From NCBI GenBank assembly GCA_050014195.1, contig JBEKDT010000012.1, positions 32,001 through 96,000 on the forward strand: a stretch of DNA of 64,000 bases, in the 5' to 3' direction. The translations under genes were made by a program, and so were the position numbers. Position 1 is the stretch's first letter. Every line of letters starts with the position of its first letter. The notes beneath the pieces are model-generated. The model was not told the DNA's origin and made no database searches. It worked only from the letters and a program-made list of their open reading frames with translations. This document shows, in pieces, positions 4,392 to 32,005 of this stretch. Source of the stretch: Desulfomonilia bacterium (GTDB lineage: Bacteria; Desulfobacterota; Desulfomonilia; UBA1062).

Positions 4392-5063
4392 GTGAAACGC
4401 AGCACCCTCGGTTTACGGAAGAATCTCAAGGAACTCAAGCGCAGGGAGGCCATAATCTCCTCGGCCATACAGGTCTTCTCTGCCAAGGGATATGAGAGGG
4501 CCACCATGGATGACATTGCTGCAGATACCGGGCTCAGTAAGGCATTGATCTACTGGTACTGGGAAAACAAGGCTGCGTTATTCTCTGAGCTGGTTGACCG
4601 GTGCATGATACCCTACTGCCATCTCCTGCAGAAGACCATCGACTCCCCTGATCCGTTTGGAGAGAAGCTCACCTTGTTCCTGACGGATTTCACACGGCTC
4701 TTCAGAGATAATGATGCCTTGAACAAGCTGGTGCATTTCGGCTCACTCCATTCCCATCCGGTAAATGAACAGGAGAATTTCAGCGAGAAGGCGAACGCCT
4801 ATTACCAAAGGGTCCAGGACTTGCTCCATGAGTTGCTCAGCCAGGGTGTCAAACAGGGCTATTTTAAGGTCGACCTGGACAAAAAGGCGCTATCCTTTTT
4901 CCTCCTGCTGGCTGTGGAAGGATACATCTACATGTCCATGCTGGAAGAGAGGATGCCGGTTGAGAGGGCCCTGATAGACTTGGCCCGGAATATCATATTC
5001 CCGGCTGTCATTCGTAAAGATGATAACAGAACAGGCTTCAACAACTTGTTTTCTTGTAGATGA
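4392..5063 (+). CDS. TetR/AcrR family transcriptional regulator
   Basis: N-terminal HTH: AIQVFSAKGYERATMDDIAADTGLSKALIYWYWENKAALF. Confidence 0.92.
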   Translation: MKRSTLGLRKNLKELKRREAIISSAIQVFSAKGYERATMDDIAADTGLSKALIYWYWENKAALFSELVDRCMIPYCHLLQKTIDSPDPFGEKLTLFLTDFTRLFRDNDALNKLVHFGSLHSHPVNEQENFSEKANAYYQRVQDLLHELLSQGVKQGYFKVDLDKKALSFFLLLAVEGYIYMSMLEERMPVERALIDLARNIIFPAVIRKDDNRTGFNNLFSCR

Positions 5064-5155: not shown

Positions 5156-5851
5156 ATGGAATCCCAGGATAAAGGTGTGTTCGATAGATTTCAGGAGATC
5201 TTCTTTACTTTTCAAATCGATGAGATCATCAAGCATGCGGATGATCTTATCGGCTCTCATGTATCCCCGCAGGGTTTCCTTACTGTATGCCAACAGTGCA
5301 TGGACGTTGTCGGGAAGAGGTTTGAGGCAGGTGAATACTTCCTCCCGGAGCTGATTGTTGCAGGGGAGGTCTTCAAGCTGTTGAGCCTAAAGATACGACC
5401 ATTTCTCAAGACATATGATACCCTCGGCTCGAGCGGAAGCATTGTGGTCGGCACACCTAGGGGCGATATACACAGCCTCGGGAAGGACATCTTCTGTATG
5501 CTGGCCGAGGCTGTAGGGTTTAGGGTCCATAACCTGGGGGAAGATGTGCCGCCTGATGCCTTTATCGCCAAGGCAAGAGAAACAGATGCCAGGATTATAG
5601 GCATGTCTGCGCTCATTACGACTGCATACTCATCCATGCAGGAAGTCATCCGGCAGCTCGAAAAAGACGGGCTTCGAGACCGGGTCAAGGTCGTGATCGG
5701 GGGCGGTGCCACCACAAAAGAACTCGCTCAGAAGCTGGGCGCAGATGCACAAACATGGGATGCCTATGAAGGGATCAGGATCATAGAGTCGTTCCTTTCT
5801 CAAGAAGCCTCTGATGTGAAAATCGCCTCTGAAGGGGGAAAGCTCGGGTGA
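5156..5851 (+). CDS. Corrinoid (cobalamin-binding) protein, MtaC/MetH B12 domain type
   Basis: Cap domain VGKRFEAGEYFLPEL; DxHxxG motif GDIHSLGK; SALITT; VIGGG. Confidence 0.92.
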   Translation: MESQDKGVFDRFQEIFFTFQIDEIIKHADDLIGSHVSPQGFLTVCQQCMDVVGKRFEAGEYFLPELIVAGEVFKLLSLKIRPFLKTYDTLGSSGSIVVGTPRGDIHSLGKDIFCMLAEAVGFRVHNLGEDVPPDAFIAKARETDARIIGMSALITTAYSSMQEVIRQLEKDGLRDRVKVVIGGGATTKELAQKLGADAQTWDAYEGIRIIESFLSQEASDVKIASEGGKLG

Positions 5852-7044
5852 GGGAGCAGAAAATATTTAAGAGGGATCGACTGAGCGCTGATCAAAGGGT
5901 CAATGCTGTTGTGCGCTGCGAAAAGCCTGACCGGGTTCCGCTTTCTCTCATGATCTACTACTATGCCCCGTTTCACACGGGCATGGACATGGGGACGTAC
6001 CTGAAGCGGCCCAAGGCCTACATGTCGGCGATGCACCAGGTGTTTGAAGATATCGGGCCCTGGGACATATATTACAACATCAATCCTTTCTCGAGGTTGA
6101 TGTACAGCTATGTCATGATGATGAGGTCCCTGTGGCCCGGGATAGAGCTTCCTCGCGGCGGGGTGGTACAGATCGAGGAGATAGAATATATGACGCCTGA
6201 AGACTACGATGATATCCTCAGGTCCGACTCATGGTGGTCAACCAAGCTCGGCGATACCCTGTTCCGACTCAGGATGCTTCCCCGCTTCTGCCAGGAGGCA
6301 AGCGGCAGTAGCCCCATAAAGGTTTTTTCACAATTTATCGCCGGACTCTTCAGCCAGTGGCTCTTCTGGTTCAGGGATTTCTCATGGTGGAGGAAAAAGG
6401 GGGCGGCCATCCAGATCGGCTACCAGGCCGAGATGCCTTTTGACATCTTCTCGCAGGCGAGAAACGTCATCAACTTTTCAAAAGACCTCTTTGCCATACC
6501 CGACAAGATAGGCAAAGCAGCCACTAGGCTTGCCGACAGCTTCGCCAATTTCTCCATCCTGATTGCAAAGGTCATGCAGGTTCCCCGTGTGCAGCTCTAT
6601 CTTCACCGGACATCCAACAGCTTCATCTCGCCTAAGCAGTTCGAGATGCTTGCATTCCCGAGCATCGAGATCATCGTGAACCGATTGGTTGATGCAGGGA
6701 TCACCCCGATCCTCCACTGCGACGGAGACTGGCTGAAGAACCTGAAGACCCTGCGCCGCCTCCCGGCAAAGTCCTGCATACTCCAGCTCGACGGGCTGAC
6801 GGACATCTTCAAGGCCAAGGAGGAGATAGGCGAGGATATGTGTATCTTCGGCGATGTCCCCGCTGGCATGCTCGTGATGGGCTCAGAAAGCGAGGTCGAT
6901 GAGTACTGCCATCGTCTCATCACGGAGGTGGGCAGGGGAGGGGGATTCATCCTGGCCGGTGGCTGAGAGGTCCCGTCCAACTCCCGTGTGGAGAATCTCA
7001 AAGCCATGGTAGGCGCTGTGGAAAAGTACGGCTACTATGAGTAA
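5848..7044 (+). CDS. UroD/MtaA (MT2) family methyltransferase, probable selenoprotein (UGA 6964-6966 = Sec373; 398 aa)
   Basis: PDRVP start, ILHCDG, CIFGDVP, GGGFILAGG-[TGA]-EVPSNSRVENLKAMVGAVEKYGYYE-TAA. The read-through matches the family C-terminus and ends 14 nt before the next ATG. Confidence 0.85.
6964..7000 (+). promoter_or_regulatory. Putative bacterial SECIS element
   Basis: Stem CTCC(6981-84)/GGAG(6990-93) with loop CGTGT 18 nt after the UGA, G at loop position 2; lower pairing TGAGA/TCTCA. Confidence 0.6.
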
Positions 7045-7058
7045 AATAAGGAGAAGGG

Positions 7059-7871
7059 ATGAAAACCGATATCATCAATGCGGTGAAGGATTTTACGGCA
7101 CAGGAGGGAGTCCTCATGGGCGTTGCGAGCGCAGAGGTGCTCAATGCAAAGGCCCCTGAAGGATTCCGCCCCGTGGACATAATGCCGAGTGCCAAGAGCG
7201 TGCTCGTCTTTGCCAAGCCTCTTCCCCTTGCCGTATTCCTTGTGCCCGACGGATTCAATCACATGTATTACCAGCGGTCTGCCTACATGTACTACCTCCT
7301 CATGGATAGGGTAGCAGATGGAGCGAGCATGATCCTCCAGGAAGAAGGATATCTTTCACTGCCCATCCCGTCCTACAGCCCATTACGATTTCATGAGGGC
7401 GAACCGAGGGGGGTCATCAGCCTCAAACACGCTGCAGCCGAAGCCGGGCTGGGCGCAATCGGAAGAAATACCCTGCTCATCAACCCCAAATATGGGAATA
7501 TCATGAGGCTTGGTGCTCTCATGACCGAGATGCAATGGCCGGAATACTCATCCAATGCCGATTACAGACCCTGCCCGGAAGGGTGTCATGTATGCGAACG
7601 CTCTTGTCCGATAGGCGCCATCAAAGATGGCAGGGTAAATAAGACAGCCTGCCTGGGCAGGTGCATCAAGCATGCGATGCTGCCTCCATCTTTCATGCTC
7701 CCTGTGGTTAAGAAGGCAGTTGCACACAGCAGGATGCTCACAGAGTTCATGGAGCTCATCTCGCTCAATTTCTTCGAGACCTATGGTATCGGCTGCACGG
7801 CCTGCTTGAATGCATGCCCACATTTCCCGGGTAAAAAAAGAGAGGTCAGCCGGGGTGTGAGAAATAATTAA
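7059..7871 (+). CDS. Epoxyqueuosine reductase (QueG)-like cobalamin/2x[4Fe-4S] protein
   Basis: SAKSVLVF, SLKHAAAEAGLGAIGRNTLLINPKYG..MRLGALMT, CPEGCHVCERSCP, CTACLNACP. Confidence 0.8.
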   Translation: MKTDIINAVKDFTAQEGVLMGVASAEVLNAKAPEGFRPVDIMPSAKSVLVFAKPLPLAVFLVPDGFNHMYYQRSAYMYYLLMDRVADGASMILQEEGYLSLPIPSYSPLRFHEGEPRGVISLKHAAAEAGLGAIGRNTLLINPKYGNIMRLGALMTEMQWPEYSSNADYRPCPEGCHVCERSCPIGAIKDGRVNKTACLGRCIKHAMLPPSFMLPVVKKAVAHSRMLTEFMELISLNFFETYGIGCTACLNACPHFPGKKREVSRGVRNN

Positions 7872-7928: not shown

Positions 7929-8822
7929 ATGAGATCGGAGATGACCATGCATGCATTTATCGCTGACCTGATCAAAGACGGGCCGGTCCTGACGGACGGA
8001 TCCTGGGGCACGCAGATCATCAAACGCGGCCTTAAGCCCGGGGAATCCCCTGATTCATGGAATCTCACCCACCCGGATAAGGTCCAGGAGGTAGCCAAGG
8101 AATATGTCGATGCGGGCAGCCGGATCATCCTGACCAACACCTTCGGCGCCAACCGTTTCGTGCTGGGCAAGTTCGGCCTTGCAGACAAGGTGGCCGAGGT
8201 CAACAGCAAAGGAGTCGAGATCTCCAAGAAGGCCGCAGGCACAAAGGCGTATGTCTTTGCATCCATGGGGCCCAGCGGCAAGTTGCTCCTTACCAGGGAT
8301 GTCAGCGAGGACGACCTCAGGCAGGCATTTGAAGAACAGGCCAAGGCCATCGCAACGGCGGGTGCGGACGCCATCGTGGTGGAGACCATGATGGATCCGG
8401 CCGAGGCCAGGATAGCCGCCACTGCGGCCAAACAGACCGGGCTTCCCGTGCTGGCCTGTCTGGTCTTCGATGCAGGCAAAACCAAAGACCGCACCATGAT
8501 GGGCAATACCCCCGAACAGGTTGTGGAAGTTCTCAGCCATCTAGGCATTGACGGCCTCGGCGCCAACTGCGGTCAGGGCATAGAGGGTTTCATCCCCATC
8601 TGCAGGCGTATGCGCTCAGTCACGGATCTTCCGCTCTGGATGAAACCGAACGCAGGGCTCCCGGAAAGGGTGGAGGGAAAGGTGGTGTACAGAACGACTG
8701 CCCAGGAATTCGTCCGCTTCGTTCCCGACCTTGTTCGCTCGGGTGCGAACTTCATCGGCGGATGCTGCGGGACGGAACAGGCATTCATCAGTGAGATTGG
8801 AAAAACACTGAAAGGCTTATAA
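7929..8822 (+). CDS. Homocysteine S-methyltransferase family protein (stand-alone MetH Hcy-binding domain)
   Basis: DGSWGT, TNTFGAN, ET, Zn ligands GANCG and GGCCG, PNAGLP; the start may be a few codons downstream. Confidence 0.92.
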   Translation: MRSEMTMHAFIADLIKDGPVLTDGSWGTQIIKRGLKPGESPDSWNLTHPDKVQEVAKEYVDAGSRIILTNTFGANRFVLGKFGLADKVAEVNSKGVEISKKAAGTKAYVFASMGPSGKLLLTRDVSEDDLRQAFEEQAKAIATAGADAIVVETMMDPAEARIAATAAKQTGLPVLACLVFDAGKTKDRTMMGNTPEQVVEVLSHLGIDGLGANCGQGIEGFIPICRRMRSVTDLPLWMKPNAGLPERVEGKVVYRTTAQEFVRFVPDLVRSGANFIGGCCGTEQAFISEIGKTLKGL

Positions 8823-8841: not shown

Positions 8842-10011
8842 ATGCATGCCATCGAACGCGTACTCAACGCATTGGAAGGGAAGCCGACCGACAGGGTCCC
8901 CACCTTCTGTGCCATGGTTGAAGACAGGACCTTCAACGAGGTGCTCGGAAAACCGCTCATATCCCAGGAGACACTGTTGAAAAACCCCGTGTCCCGATTT
9001 TTCCTCGACAGATGGGGCACAAGGTTGACGAAGCTCGTATTTCAGCCCGAGGTGAACCGTGCCCTGGAAAAGCGCATCAGGGCCCAGGTCGAGCTGGGCT
9101 TCGATGCGGTATGGGCCTTTCTCGACGAGACCTTCGTCGTGCTCGATTCGAAGACCATGGCGAGGTTCACGGGGTCCATCTTCAATCTCCAGCCGGACGG
9201 CTTTGGGAACATGACCTACATGTACCGCGGGCCGGGCATCAAGAGCCGGGAGGATTTCGAGAGCTGGCCCTACTGGCCGGATGCCGATGATGTGGCGCAC
9301 AGTTCGTACAAGTTTTTCAAGAGGATGGTTAAAAAATATGGAGATCGTTCCTGCATCATCGGCGAAGCCTCTGCATACGGTATCCAGGAAACGATCCTGT
9401 GGGCATTGGGCTTTGAGAAGATGCCTATCTGGATCAGACGTGAGAAGGATCTGATCAAGCGTTTTATCGAGAGAAACGAGGAGCTCTGCCTCAAGACCAA
9501 CATGGCCCTCATCGATGCGGGGGTGAGAGTCATCATCCAGTGTGACGACTTTTCATTCAAGAGCGGCCCCATCATGAATCCGAAGCTTATCGACGAGCTC
9601 TTCGGCCCGTCATATAAGCGCATCATCAAGGCCGTGCACGACCGTGGAGCCAAGTATGTGCTCCATTCATGCGGCGACAACACCCTGCTCTTCGACACCT
9701 TCATCTCCTGGGGGGTGGATGGGCTCCACGCCTATGAAATGACCTCCAATGTCGACATCTTCAAGGAAAAGAAGATCCATGGCGACAAGGTTACCATCAT
9801 CGGCGGGGTGGGGGTGGATTATCTGCTCACGGACCGCTCAAAGGATGAAGAGGTAGTGGAAGAGGTCAGGAAGCTCATCAAAGAGCTCGGCCCCGGCGGC
9901 AGGTTCATCATCTCCCCGGTCCACAGCCTGAGTTCCATACCGGCGCACAAACTTAAGGTTATGGTGGATGCAGCCAAACGTTATGGCAGCTATCCCATAT
10001 CAATATCCTAA
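8842..10011 (+). CDS. UroD/MtaA (MT2) family methyltransferase
   Basis: ERVLNALEGKPTDRVP, DD, HxC motif LHSCGD, GGRFIISPVHSL...MVDAAKRYG. Confidence 0.88.
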   Translation: MHAIERVLNALEGKPTDRVPTFCAMVEDRTFNEVLGKPLISQETLLKNPVSRFFLDRWGTRLTKLVFQPEVNRALEKRIRAQVELGFDAVWAFLDETFVVLDSKTMARFTGSIFNLQPDGFGNMTYMYRGPGIKSREDFESWPYWPDADDVAHSSYKFFKRMVKKYGDRSCIIGEASAYGIQETILWALGFEKMPIWIRREKDLIKRFIERNEELCLKTNMALIDAGVRVIIQCDDFSFKSGPIMNPKLIDELFGPSYKRIIKAVHDRGAKYVLHSCGDNTLLFDTFISWGVDGLHAYEMTSNVDIFKEKKIHGDKVTIIGGVGVDYLLTDRSKDEEVVEEVRKLIKELGPGGRFIISPVHSLSSIPAHKLKVMVDAAKRYGSYPISIS

Positions 10012-10035: not shown

Positions 10036-10677
10036 ATGAAGGAATCGATCCTGGCGGTACGCAAGGCCATTGACGAACTCGACATCGACGGGATCAGCAA
10101 GCTCGTAAGCCGATGCCTGGAGGAAGGTCTTTCCCCGGAAGAGGTCATCCAGGAGGGCGTCAGCAAGGGGCTTGAGATCGTGGGGGGCAAGTTCGAGGCC
10201 GGTGAATATTTCCTGGCGGATCTCATCATGGCCGGAGAGGTCGTGAAAGAGGCCATGCCCATCCTCAAGGAGAAGATGAACCCGGGCGAGAGCAACAGCA
10301 GGGGCAAGGTCATCCTCGCCACGGTGGCAGGGGACATCCATGAAATCGGCAAGAACATCGTGGGCATGATCCTGTCCGCCAATGGATACGAGGTGATCGA
10401 CCTGGGTGTGGATGTGCCGGCAGAGAAAATCATGGACACTGCAAAAACCACCGGGGCACGGTTCATCGGGCTCTCAGCCCTGCTCACCACCATGGTAGGC
10501 AGCATAAAGGAGGTGGTAGAGTCATCCAAGGCCGCAGGCCTGCGCAACAAACTAAGAATTGTCATCGGCGGCGCCTGCACATCAAAGGACCTGTGCAAGG
10601 AGATGGGGGCTGATGCCTATGGAGAGACCGCCATCGATGCCTTGAGGATCTTCAACGGATTTACTGCAAGTACCTGA
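10036..10677 (+). CDS. Corrinoid (cobalamin-binding) protein
   Basis: VGGKFEAGEYFLADL, GDIHEIGKNIV, SALLTT, IVIGGA. Confidence 0.93.
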   Translation: MKESILAVRKAIDELDIDGISKLVSRCLEEGLSPEEVIQEGVSKGLEIVGGKFEAGEYFLADLIMAGEVVKEAMPILKEKMNPGESNSRGKVILATVAGDIHEIGKNIVGMILSANGYEVIDLGVDVPAEKIMDTAKTTGARFIGLSALLTTMVGSIKEVVESSKAAGLRNKLRIVIGGACTSKDLCKEMGADAYGETAIDALRIFNGFTAST

Positions 10678-10728: not shown

Positions 10729-12240
10729 ATGAATCAGCATACCATAACCCTCATCCCTTCTGGCTCACAGCAATCGTTCCCTTCGGAGATGTTTCTCACA
10801 GAGGCGCTCCTGGACATGGGCATTGCCCTGAAAACCCCCTGCGGCGGCAAGGGCATATGCAATAAGTGCAAGGTTATGGTGGAAGGAGAACCCGCTGCAG
10901 TTCTTGCCTGCCAGACACGCATCACTAAGGATCTTAGGGTGCATGCAGAGCAAGAGGAGATCAACCGGGACATCCATATCCCTCATGTCCGTCCTGATGA
11001 TCACATATCAGTGGCCGTGGACATCGGGACCACCTCTGTGAGGATATCCCTGGTTGATACATCACGAAAGGCCTCGTTCGAGATCGCATCATTTCTTAAC
11101 CCGCAGCAGAGATTCGGACACGACGTCATCTCACGGATCGCAGCAGGCAGGGACCCATCCAAGCTACAGTCCCTACAAAACCTTATCAGAAAGGCCGTCA
11201 ATATCCGTCTCGGCTTGGTTCTTAATGTCATAGAACTCCCTGCAGGCATGATCGAACAGATCGTGTTCTCGGGCAACACCACCATGCTCTACCTGCTCTT
11301 CGGGCTCGACGTGGAGCCTCTGGGCAGGTATCCGTACACGACCCTGACAAAGGATTTTAAAGACCTCTTGGCAGAAGAGATCGGCCTTGATTGCATCGGT
11401 TCGGCACGTGTCCTTAGCCTGCCCGTGCTCAGCGCATTCATCGGCGCTGACCTCGTGGGCGGATTAACCATGTGCCATGACCTTGGCATCACCCGCAATG
11501 CCTTCTTCATTGATCTGGGCACCAACGGCGAGTTGTTCCTCCTGGACGGCAAGGGTAATCCGTATACAACCTCCTGTGCCATGGGCCCTGCCCTGGAGGG
11601 CATGAACATCACCTGGGGCATGACTGCCGATACCGGCGCCATCACCCATATTTATGCAGAAAAGGGAGGTCTCAGGTATCACATGATCGGCCGGGGCTGG
11701 CCTGTCGGCATCACCGGCACAGCGCTGGTGGACCTGATCGCCATCCTTCTGGACAATGGCATCATCGCACCGCATGGCGCCTTTTCCAATAATTCGGAGA
11801 AATATAATCTCTTGAGCCCGCTGTGCCTAAACCACAACGGAGAATCCAAAGGGCTTAAGCTCTGGGGAGATATCAGGCTCACCCAGAAGGATATCCGCAA
11901 TGTCCAGCTCGCCAAGGCGGCATCGCTGAGCGCTGCACGCTTCCTCCTGGAGGCCGCCGAGTTTGACCCGGGTGACGTCGAGCATGTGTTCATTGCAGGG
12001 GCCTTTGGCGAGAACCTTGATCTGGATCATTTCAGCAGGCTCGGCTTTATCCCTTGTTTTCCCAATGCCGCCTGCGAGTTTCTCGGCAATACGAGCTTGA
12101 AGGCCGCCCAGAAGGCCTGCTTTGACCCTGATTTCCTGAAACGTGCCGTTACACTAAGGGACAAAGCCCGGGAGGTGGTGCTCTCCGCGTTGCCAACCTT
12201 CCAGGATGTATTCATTCGATCACTCGAATTCCCGGCATAA
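10729..12240 (+). CDS. ASKHA-domain reductive activator of corrinoid proteins (RACo/RamA type) with N-terminal [2Fe-2S]
   Basis: CGGKGICNKC...LAC, VDIGTT, NPQ..GHDVISRI, DLGTNGE, SCAMGPALEG, TQKDIRNVQLAKAA, AGAFG. Confidence 0.92.
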   Translation: MNQHTITLIPSGSQQSFPSEMFLTEALLDMGIALKTPCGGKGICNKCKVMVEGEPAAVLACQTRITKDLRVHAEQEEINRDIHIPHVRPDDHISVAVDIGTTSVRISLVDTSRKASFEIASFLNPQQRFGHDVISRIAAGRDPSKLQSLQNLIRKAVNIRLGLVLNVIELPAGMIEQIVFSGNTTMLYLLFGLDVEPLGRYPYTTLTKDFKDLLAEEIGLDCIGSARVLSLPVLSAFIGADLVGGLTMCHDLGITRNAFFIDLGTNGELFLLDGKGNPYTTSCAMGPALEGMNITWGMTADTGAITHIYAEKGGLRYHMIGRGWPVGITGTALVDLIAILLDNGIIAPHGAFSNNSEKYNLLSPLCLNHNGESKGLKLWGDIRLTQKDIRNVQLAKAASLSAARFLLEAAEFDPGDVEHVFIAGAFGENLDLDHFSRLGFIPCFPNAACEFLGNTSLKAAQKACFDPDFLKRAVTLRDKAREVVLSALPTFQDVFIRSLEFPA

Positions 12241-12303: not shown

Positions 12304-12966
12304 ATGGACCGGATCATCTTAGACGATATACCCTTTGAGGTGGATGAGAAAGGGCTTGTAGAGCTCTTAAGGATTCAACCCGGCTCCCGCAGCGCAGCCG
12401 AGCTCTCGAAGATCCTGGGAGAGGCCCGCTTGGTTGCCAGGCCAAAGGCGGCCTTTGCCGCGGCTGCTGCGCATATGATTGAAGAGGGAACCATAGAGAT
12501 CGGTGGAGTACATTTCACCAGCAGGCTGCTGTGCATAAACCTGGACAAGGCGGGCATTGTCTTTCCGTTTGTAGCCACATGCGGGAGCGAGCTCGAGCAG
12601 TGGTCACGGACCATGAGCGGCATGCTGCATTCCTTCTGGGCCGATTCCATCATGCTCATGGCATTGGGCTGTGCCATGACCTTCCTTGAAACATGCCTGA
12701 AGAAGAGGGTAGGCGACGGGGCATCCCTTTCGTCCATGAACCCGGGCTCGCTTACGGACTGGCCGCTCACGGAACAGGCAGCACTCTTCTCCCTTTTGGG
12801 AGATAGTGCCAAGGCAATCGGCACCAGGCTCACCGAGAAGATGGTCATTCAGCCTCTTAAATCTGTTTCAGGCATACAGTTTGTCTCGGAGGAGGGATTT
12901 GTGAACTGTTCTCTATGCCCGAGGCAGGGCTGTCCATCCCGCAGGGCGCCGTATGATGCAAAATAA
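12304..12966 (+). CDS. B12-dependent methionine synthase activation-domain-like protein
   Basis: FVATCG, MNPGSLTDWPLTEQ, PLKSVSGI, C-terminal CSLCPRQGCPSRRAPY. Confidence 0.85.
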   Translation: MDRIILDDIPFEVDEKGLVELLRIQPGSRSAAELSKILGEARLVARPKAAFAAAAAHMIEEGTIEIGGVHFTSRLLCINLDKAGIVFPFVATCGSELEQWSRTMSGMLHSFWADSIMLMALGCAMTFLETCLKKRVGDGASLSSMNPGSLTDWPLTEQAALFSLLGDSAKAIGTRLTEKMVIQPLKSVSGIQFVSEEGFVNCSLCPRQGCPSRRAPYDAK

Positions 12967-31963: not shown

Positions 31964-32005
31964 CTAACTCATTGATTCACATAACTAATTACATTTTATT
32001 GCGGA

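Follow-up and report, generated by a model that had tools for sequence, protein, structure and literature searches.

The 64-kb stretch of DNA analysed here (hereafter the window), which spans positions 32,001 to 96,000 of contig JBEKDT010000012.1 from a Desulfomonilia bacterium, carries on its forward strand a gene of the uroporphyrinogen decarboxylase (UroD) superfamily with a TGA codon inside its reading frame. The frame opens with GTG at position 5848 and runs for 372 codons to TGA 6964-6966. The preliminary description of this DNA had reported that the frame does not end there, and it indeed stays open for 25 further codons until TAA 7042-7044. When TGA is read as selenocysteine (Sec, U), the translation past this codon is EVPSNSRVENLKAMVGAVEKYGYYE, followed by the TAA. 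The same description had proposed a hidden selenoprotein, a view that is supported by the codon pattern among relatives, by the occurrence of the TGA form in two clades, by the tail, by the Sec machinery of the genome and by contigs from sequencing runs. From this comparative evidence we consider it very probable that Sec is inserted at UGA 6964-6966 as residue 373 (U373), and that positions 5848-7044 make up a single gene for a selenoprotein of 398 residues, predicted to be a corrinoid-dependent methyltransferase.

The read-through protein matches the Pfam URO-D domain (PF01208; cut-off 23.9) with 93.5 bits. This match covers the profile to its end (346/346), reached at residue 394 of the protein, only when the tail encoded at 6967-7044 (25 codons and the TAA) is included. 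Full-length homologues that carry cysteine (Cys) at the position of the TGA are 393-410 amino acids (aa) long. At its 5′ end the gene overlaps its neighbour, as GTG 5848, preceded by the ribosome-binding site GGGGGA, shares nucleotides with the TGA stop (5849-5851) of the upstream corrinoid-protein gene. The next gene starts with ATG 7059 behind AAGGAG, 14 nucleotides (nt) past the TAA, which is the spacing given in the preliminary description. Twenty-five open codons alone are near chance expectation, as roughly three in ten random stretches would be equally open by our own arithmetic. UGA serves as an ordinary stop in neighbouring genes, for example at 5849-5851, which excludes a genome-wide reassignment of TGA.

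A search of a large protein collection returned 428 relatives, of which the best 120 were considered; four fragments shorter than 360 aa were dropped and 116 proteins of at least 360 aa were kept. Among these, 97 have Cys at the position of the TGA, within the motif G-C-E-[IV]-P, and the other 19, which are 369-372 aa long, terminate exactly at ...GGF[IV]L[AG]GG. One of the 19 is P0075, a protein of 369 aa that NCBI annotates as 'uroporphyrinogen decarboxylase family protein' and that ends just before the TGA codon. The expectation that annotation pipelines would truncate such genes is therefore borne out by 19 database entries: gene callers, including that of NCBI, end these genes at the UGA, so that at least 25 C-terminal residues are lost together with a conserved active-site residue.

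The exchange between Cys and TGA was followed at the DNA level in 67 metagenome loci, 36 genome loci and the loci that a survey of 401 genomes from the phylum yielded. Where the motif was visible (100 locus rows), the codon in the TGA column is TGC in 57 rows, TGT in 29 and TGA in 14, with no other codon present. Loci on the reverse strand contributed 8 more Cys codons, and 17 loci were too short or too distant for the motif to show. Two of the 14 TGA rows (L015 and L037) are the window's own DNA, L037 being a metagenome contig that is 100% identical to the window and carries the TGA, so that 12 others remain. Their products are 63-96% identical to that of the window gene. Clade A holds, besides the window, L036 and L103 (93-96% identity), the latter labelled as a metagenome-assembled genome of Desulfomonilia. 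The ten loci of clade B, at about 63-67% identity (L046, L047, L106, L107, L108, L110, L111, L115, L116 and L126), bear the record labels Desulfosudaceae, Desulfobacterales or Thermodesulfobacteriota. In the 401-genome scan, homologues (E <= 1e-60) were present in 15 genomes, and an internal stop was found in that of the window only. The UGA at the same column in other homologues, for which the preliminary description had suggested looking, thus occurs at 12 loci in two independent clades.

A maximum-likelihood tree was built from 71 full-length rows (12 Sec and 59 Cys forms), with the exclusion of rows that have fewer than 330 upstream codons, lack a stop in the locus or are identical to another row. 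On this tree the Sec rows form two separate starred clades, one of which is sister to Smithella/Syntrophales-type Cys forms, while the other is nested in different Cys forms. A single Sec clade is rejected by the approximately unbiased (AU) test: a tree forced to hold one is worse by 65 log-likelihood (lnL) units (p-AU 0.00029). On a protein tree of 117 rows, the truncation label needs three changes, and the starred branches force at least two. The apparent recurrence of TGA at one presumably functional Cys codon, and its retention through divergence, are the classic mark of an exchange between Sec and Cys, and such independent recurrence argues for an advantage of Sec.

Several features bear on the kind of enzyme that this gene encodes. 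The protein is predicted to be a corrinoid-dependent methyltransferase of the UroD superfamily that transfers methyl groups to or from a cobalamin protein. It had been described as an MT2/UroD methyltransferase, and the UroD assignment stands with the URO-D domain match given above. The MT2 part is not supported: scores against the NCBIfam models MtaA_Meth (38.9, cut-off 400), MtbA (31.5, cut-off 600) and mtaA_cmuA (36.2, cut-off 235.4) all lie far below their cut-offs, and the nearest solved relative is an MT1 enzyme. This is CdmB (9rui), the chloromethane:corrinoid methyltransferase of Acetobacterium dehalogenans, which is matched with E 8.9e-22 by the single sequence and 2e-42 by a profile of 25 family members, over both the N-terminal and the C-terminal part. 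Like the window gene, the gene for CdmB is clustered with one for a corrinoid protein, and no Sec has been reported for it. Its authors regard CdmB as closely related to O-demethylases, according to the accessible text of PMC13222342. MtaA and MtbA (MT2, methylcobamide:coenzyme M methyltransferases; structure 4ay7) share with the window protein the URO-D family, a corrinoid-protein partner and the H-x-C...G-C columns, but they are methanogen enzymes with a His-x-Cys...Cys ligand set, whereas the window gene is bacterial and its family has His-x-Asp...Cys/Sec. The searches made here brought up no Sec form of either MtaA or MtbA. Because CdmB is the nearest solved relative, and because a change from Cys to a carboxylate is typical of O-methyl members, we tentatively favour an MT1 role of the O-demethylase type (substrate:corrinoid).

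The residue replaced by Sec belongs to a small set of strongly conserved positions. In an alignment of 25 diverse family members, five positions (H290, D292, C332, C354 and C373) never vary, and C291 reaches at least 90% conservation; H290-C291-D292 is encoded at 6715-6723 (CAC TGC GAC) of the window. When the profile of these members is aligned to MtaA (4ay7), 'tpilhcDGd' falls on 'VTVLHICGN' and 'aaGCeippn' on 'APGCGIAPM', so that H290 and D292 occupy the columns of the MtaA H-x-C and C/U373 that of its later Cys (G-C-G). The reading 'HCD instead of HxC' offered in the preliminary description agrees with this alignment. Its placement of the UGA at a metal-ligand Cys holds for the column, and the ligation itself is a matter of homology. 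We regard it as rather likely that Sec373, on its conserved and putatively metal-binding Cys column, ligates a metal together with His290 and Asp292.

Certain observations weigh against this arrangement. The profile match to MtaA is weak overall (E 0.0022), and the assignment of the H-x-C...C residues of MtaA as its zinc ligands is backed here only by the general superfamily rule quoted in the next paragraph. CdmB, the closest solved relative, lacks the H/D/C ligands, reading S-F-Q and F where the window family has H-C-D and C/U, and it needs no zinc, as stated in the accessible part of PMC13222342; a metal site is accordingly no given. Since CdmB has S, Q and F in these columns and no need for zinc, the metal site would be a trait of the family rather than of the whole branch.

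Alternatively, Sec might be inserted but serve as something other than a zinc ligand, for example a nucleophile that receives or passes on the methyl group, a ligand of a different metal or of a metalloid substrate, or the redox counterpart of the adjacent Cys291. The lack of zinc and of these residues in CdmB would suit such a role, as would the family's further conserved cysteines (C291, C332 and C354) and the MetH-activation-like protein of the gene cluster, which could load methyl from S-adenosylmethionine (SAM). We consider this rather unlikely. The H...D...C columns coincide with the H-x-C...C of MtaA, and nothing points to a covalent methyl-selenium intermediate. In the available text of PMC10418091, the zinc sphere of S-methyltransferases of the UroD superfamily is described as His-Cys-Cys, and O-methyltransferases are said to have Asp/Glu or non-ligands in place of one Cys or both; the residues found here fit the published variant with His, a carboxylate and Cys.

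Selenocysteine as the residue inserted is consistent with the gene content of the organism. Its genome carries selA (451 bits), selB (332 bits, over the cut-off), one tRNA-Sec, selD with one in-frame TGA (G000:C2:353599-354516) and fdhA, also with an in-frame TGA (G000:C14:107954-108694). These genes mark the organism as an active user of Sec, selD and fdhA serve as good internal references for SECIS elements, and the components of the Sec machinery that had been listed for checking (selA, selB, selD and tRNA-Sec) are all present. SelA was also detected in nine of the nine other genomes with the TGA form, in one of them as a fragment at a contig end (34.6 bits).

In bacteria, the Sec insertion sequence (SECIS) is a stem-loop that closely follows the UGA and has a G near the start of its apical loop. 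A candidate lies at 6967-6999 of the window, where a lower stem formed by GAGGU (6967-6971) and AUCUC (6995-6999) encloses an apical hairpin (6981-6993) composed of CUCC (6981-6984), the loop CGUGU (6985-6989) and GGAG (6990-6993). The distance from the UGA to the loop start is 18 nt both here and in fdhA of this genome, and 20 nt in selD. The hairpin CTCC-CGTGT-GGAG of the preliminary description is therefore present, but it is weak and folds no better than shuffled sequences. It has 4 bp and a predicted energy of -4.0 kcal/mol (-5.6 with the lower stem), and in the L036-type sequence, where a G-U pair is replaced by G-C, it reaches -8.2 kcal/mol. Folds of 45 nt and 34 nt from the window have z-scores of -0.28 and -0.82 against 200 shuffles each, of which 68 and 45, respectively, fold at least as well. 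For five sequences, the z-scores of 34-51 nt folds after the UGA range from -0.28 to -1.51. Because these values are near those of shuffles, the hairpin is not counted here as independent evidence.

The candidate is also weak beside known elements. The fdhA and selD stems of this genome have 7-8 bp, are GC-rich, carry GGU-type loops and are much stronger (-19.6 and -23.8 kcal/mol, respectively, for 60-nt folds). No Rfam SECIS model matches the window at 6900-7100 at E values up to 10; among the controls, fdhA matches SECIS_3 below the gathering score and selD matches nothing, so that the blank Rfam result says little. Finally, clades A and B have no common hairpin at the same codons.

In clade B the candidate hairpin is located 27-45 nt after the UGA (AACCGUC / CG(U/G)GC / GAUGGUU, 7 bp) and is preceded by CGC-GAAA-GCG. 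Across the 10 sequences, 98.6% of cells are paired; G-U changes to A-U four times, and A-U changes to G-C once, in a compensatory manner. The covariation amounts to this one pair, and 112 of 500 shuffles score as well, which must also be set against the element. The mean pairwise synonymous difference over codons +5 to +15 of clade B is 0.174 compared with 0.394 for the gene, the sixth lowest of 237 windows of codons, while a Cys clade of similar diversity gives 0.375 at the same codons (rank 109 of 258). To judge from these comparisons, clade B probably has a constraint at the RNA level 3′ of the UGA. For the window's clade, whose three sequences are too alike to reveal one, such a constraint is no more than plausible. 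As a post-hoc observation, the candidate loops of both clades read C-CGUG(U/C)-G, at different codon offsets.

Three other foldings were considered and rejected. A long hairpin with an AAA loop, which is the fold of lowest energy for L046, is disrupted by a G-to-A change in four clade B sequences; a CCGC/GCGG stem of clade B is interrupted in both L046 and L126; and a second hairpin of the window, at about 7003-7020, is lost in L036 and L103. The lowest synonymous windows of the clade B gene (0.09-0.13 versus 0.39) lie elsewhere, at codons -110 to -95 before the TGA (for example at about 3770-3810 of L046).

The weakness of the candidate SECIS, so unlike the fdhA and selD elements of the same genome, would be expected if the UGA were read through by a standard tRNA (a near-cognate tRNA for Trp, Cys or Arg) instead of Sec-tRNA. 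We consider this very improbable, because the TGA swaps only with Cys codons, and does so at a functional Cys column. SelA is found in 10 of 10 genomes with the TGA form when that of the window is included, the synonymous constraint that follows the codon in clade B suggests an element acting in cis, and neighbouring genes use UGA as a normal stop.

The composition of the tail bears on whether the TGA might be a true stop, which would yield a product of 372 residues that lacks the last 25, with the frame downstream left untranslated. All 12 other TGA loci keep the frame open up to the true stop, with the tail motif E[VI]P.N...KYGYY. Over codons +1 to +23, variable sites at codon positions 1, 2 and 3 number 6, 3 and 14 in nine clade B sequences and 1, 1 and 5 in three clade A sequences. 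By this pattern of variation, which falls mainly on third positions, the read-through tail is evolving as a translated protein. A true stop is what gene callers predict, as the 19 truncated database entries attest, and the statistics of the hairpin are unimpressive. Nevertheless, the tail is conserved, a protein terminated at the TGA would lack both the invariant Cys and the last part of the URO-D domain, and the ribosome-binding site of the next gene follows TAA 7042-7044 rather than the TGA. There is, in our estimation, only a slight chance that translation regularly ends at the TGA.

The TGA itself is reproduced in independent data. The window stretch is present in 24 peat or wetland runs, none of which is an RNA run. 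Positions 6964-6966 are covered by contigs of four runs from four studies, none flagged as a possible source, and these contigs, which answer the earlier query about read support, show no other letter at the codon. In one of the runs, the peat metagenome X22, two strains co-occur over 6603-7100. The variant strain differs from the window at 20 listed places, mostly at third codon positions (in the tail, three differences out of four), and it retains the TGA. This variant also has one A inserted at 7058, in the spacer ahead of the next gene. Although TGC or TGT becomes TGA by a one-base change, a pseudogene with a recent TGC>TGA nonsense change or an error of sequencing or assembly is hardly credible in view of the TGA in 12 other loci of two clades at 63-96% identity, in contigs of four independent runs that include the variant strain and in the 100% identical contig L037, and of the absence of frameshifts and further stops.

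The selenoprotein gene is part of a cluster of forward-strand genes that is headed by a TetR-family regulator (4392-5063; Pfam TetR_N). Directly upstream of the methyltransferase, and translationally coupled to it, is the gene for its cognate corrinoid protein (5156-5851; Pfam B12-binding_2 and B12-binding). Downstream are a 4Fe-4S protein of 270 aa (7059-7871) with weak QueG-like and reductive-dehalogenase-like matches (45.1 and 30.4 bits, both below cut-off), a protein with a homocysteine S-methyltransferase domain that is a candidate second methyltransferase (7929-8822; PF02574, 217.5 bits; NCBIfam below cut-off), a second UroD-family methyltransferase (8842-10011), a second corrinoid protein (10036-10677; Pfam), a RACo-type reductive activase of corrinoid proteins (10729-12240; Pfam RACo_C_ter, Raco_middle and Fer2) and a small protein resembling the MetH activation domain (12304-12966; Pfam Met_synt_B12, E 1.7e-4, below cut-off).

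The paralogue at 8842-10011 has no TGA and ends ...LKVMVDAAKRYG; it is the gene to which the preliminary description had likened the tail of the selenoprotein, and it does supply that comparison. The two genes are the only URO-D matches in the genome, and both reside in this cluster. Where the Sec gene has H-C-D and U-E, the paralogue has H-S-C (an MtaA-like H-x-C) and V-H. These differences suggest that the paralogue may use a different ligand set, perhaps His/Cys/His, and that labour may be divided between the two methyltransferases.

The arrangement was surveyed in 113 related loci, many of them on short contigs, which makes the counts lower bounds. A corrinoid protein is encoded directly upstream in 71 of the 113 loci and in 13 of 13 loci with the TGA form. 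The TetR regulator is found in 33 loci overall and in 12 of the 13 TGA-form loci. A MetH-activation-like protein after the methyltransferase was identified with two queries in 16 of the 113, and the Met_synt_B12 match is stronger in counterparts (E 8.6e-9 for L106:4170-4886 and 5.8e-10 for L046:4446-5183). This protein of 220-245 aa directly follows the methyltransferase in other lineages, whereas five genes intervene in the window. It could be involved in SAM-dependent reactivation of the corrinoid protein or in loading it with methyl. The 4Fe-4S protein is confined to the window's own clade (3 of 113 loci). The conserved core of the module is thus the TetR regulator, the corrinoid protein, the methyltransferase and the activation-like protein, and the five intervening genes are an addition in the window's clade and near sisters.

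Taken together with the preferred reading of the UGA as Sec, this gene content is compatible with the following model. UGA 6964-6966 would be decoded as Sec by SelA, SelB, SelD and tRNA-Sec, probably aided by the weak stem-loop at 6967-6999. The resulting methyltransferase would be the partner of the corrinoid protein encoded at 5156-5851, within a TetR-controlled module. Its Sec373, standing in place of the Cys that is invariant among Cys-type relatives, would join His290 and Asp292 in holding a metal, most likely zinc, which would bind and activate the heteroatom of the methyl donor or acceptor; in the mechanism that we favour, it would polarise the methyl-bearing heteroatom of the substrate. 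The methyl group would then be taken by the Co(I) of the adjacent corrinoid protein and handed on by a second methyltransferase, and oxidised cobalt would be rescued by RACo and perhaps by the activation-like protein. In a bolder variant, the genes could form a methylation module running from SAM to corrinoid to substrate, with Sec binding or methylating a soft substrate such as a thiol, a selenol or a metalloid.

Sec is known as a metal ligand in formate dehydrogenase (Mo/W-Se) and [NiFeSe] hydrogenase (Ni-Se), where it replaces a metal-ligand Cys and where Cys homologues coexist, as they do here. Those proteins are redox enzymes with redox metals, unlike the putative Lewis-acid zinc and the methyl transfer proposed for the window protein, and Sec at a zinc-type methyltransferase site would be a new use of selenium. 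We know of no natural Zn-selenolate site, although no specific search for one was made. With some reserve, we put forward the possibility that this protein uses a selenolate to ligate Lewis-acid zinc in B12-dependent methyl transfer and would be the first natural enzyme to do so, after a change from Cys to Sec that would have taken place independently at least twice in Thermodesulfobacteriota. If so, the third ligand would be chemically active, tuning the metal or exchanging at it upon binding of the heteroatom, and not a passive anchor, and the natural pairs of Sec and Cys enzymes would provide a means of testing the role of this ligand.

Previous surveys offer few parallels. The table of PMC13188914 (2026), called the most comprehensive by its authors, gives 119 prokaryotic selenoprotein families or subfamilies with domain identifiers, and this table as a whole contains no URO-D or MtaA-like methyltransferase. 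Its corrinoid- or methyl-related entries are HgcA, BtuF, CobW-related proteins, arsenite methyltransferases, MGMT and MduS. The Sec variants of HgcA, arsenite methyltransferase and MGMT are linked to methyl groups or corrinoids and were predicted by the same Cys/UGA logic, as far as the accessible part of that paper indicates, but their folds are unrelated (NF040863, NF008823 and PF01035 versus PF01208 here). The available text of PMC1976440, PMC8318568 and PMC9723677 describes no UroD-type selenoprotein, and the supplementary list of PMC8318568 might hold one. By title and abstract, no description of a Sec-containing UroD-family methyltransferase was found in the literature, where supplementary lists could name one, and NCBIfam release 20 offers no dedicated matching model. 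The UroD-type corrinoid methyltransferase looks like an unlisted selenoprotein family, found by the standard comparative logic of Sec/Cys exchange. According to run labels and record titles, the family is carried by anaerobes from peat, wetlands and sediment. Corrinoid-dependent demethylation feeds one-carbon (C1) metabolism in these habitats, and the supply of selenium may therefore bear on C1 metabolism there.

Some TGA-form loci also carry genes for tRNA-Sec. In L126 a tRNA-Sec gene (selC) was located by ARAGORN at 631-723, about 2.9 kb upstream of the methyltransferase, and a 5′-cut copy is present at the edge of L046 (1-74; Rfam 29.7 bits, under the gathering score). The proximity of selC to the methyltransferase in these two loci could be due to chance, or could reflect local linkage with this selenoprotein module.

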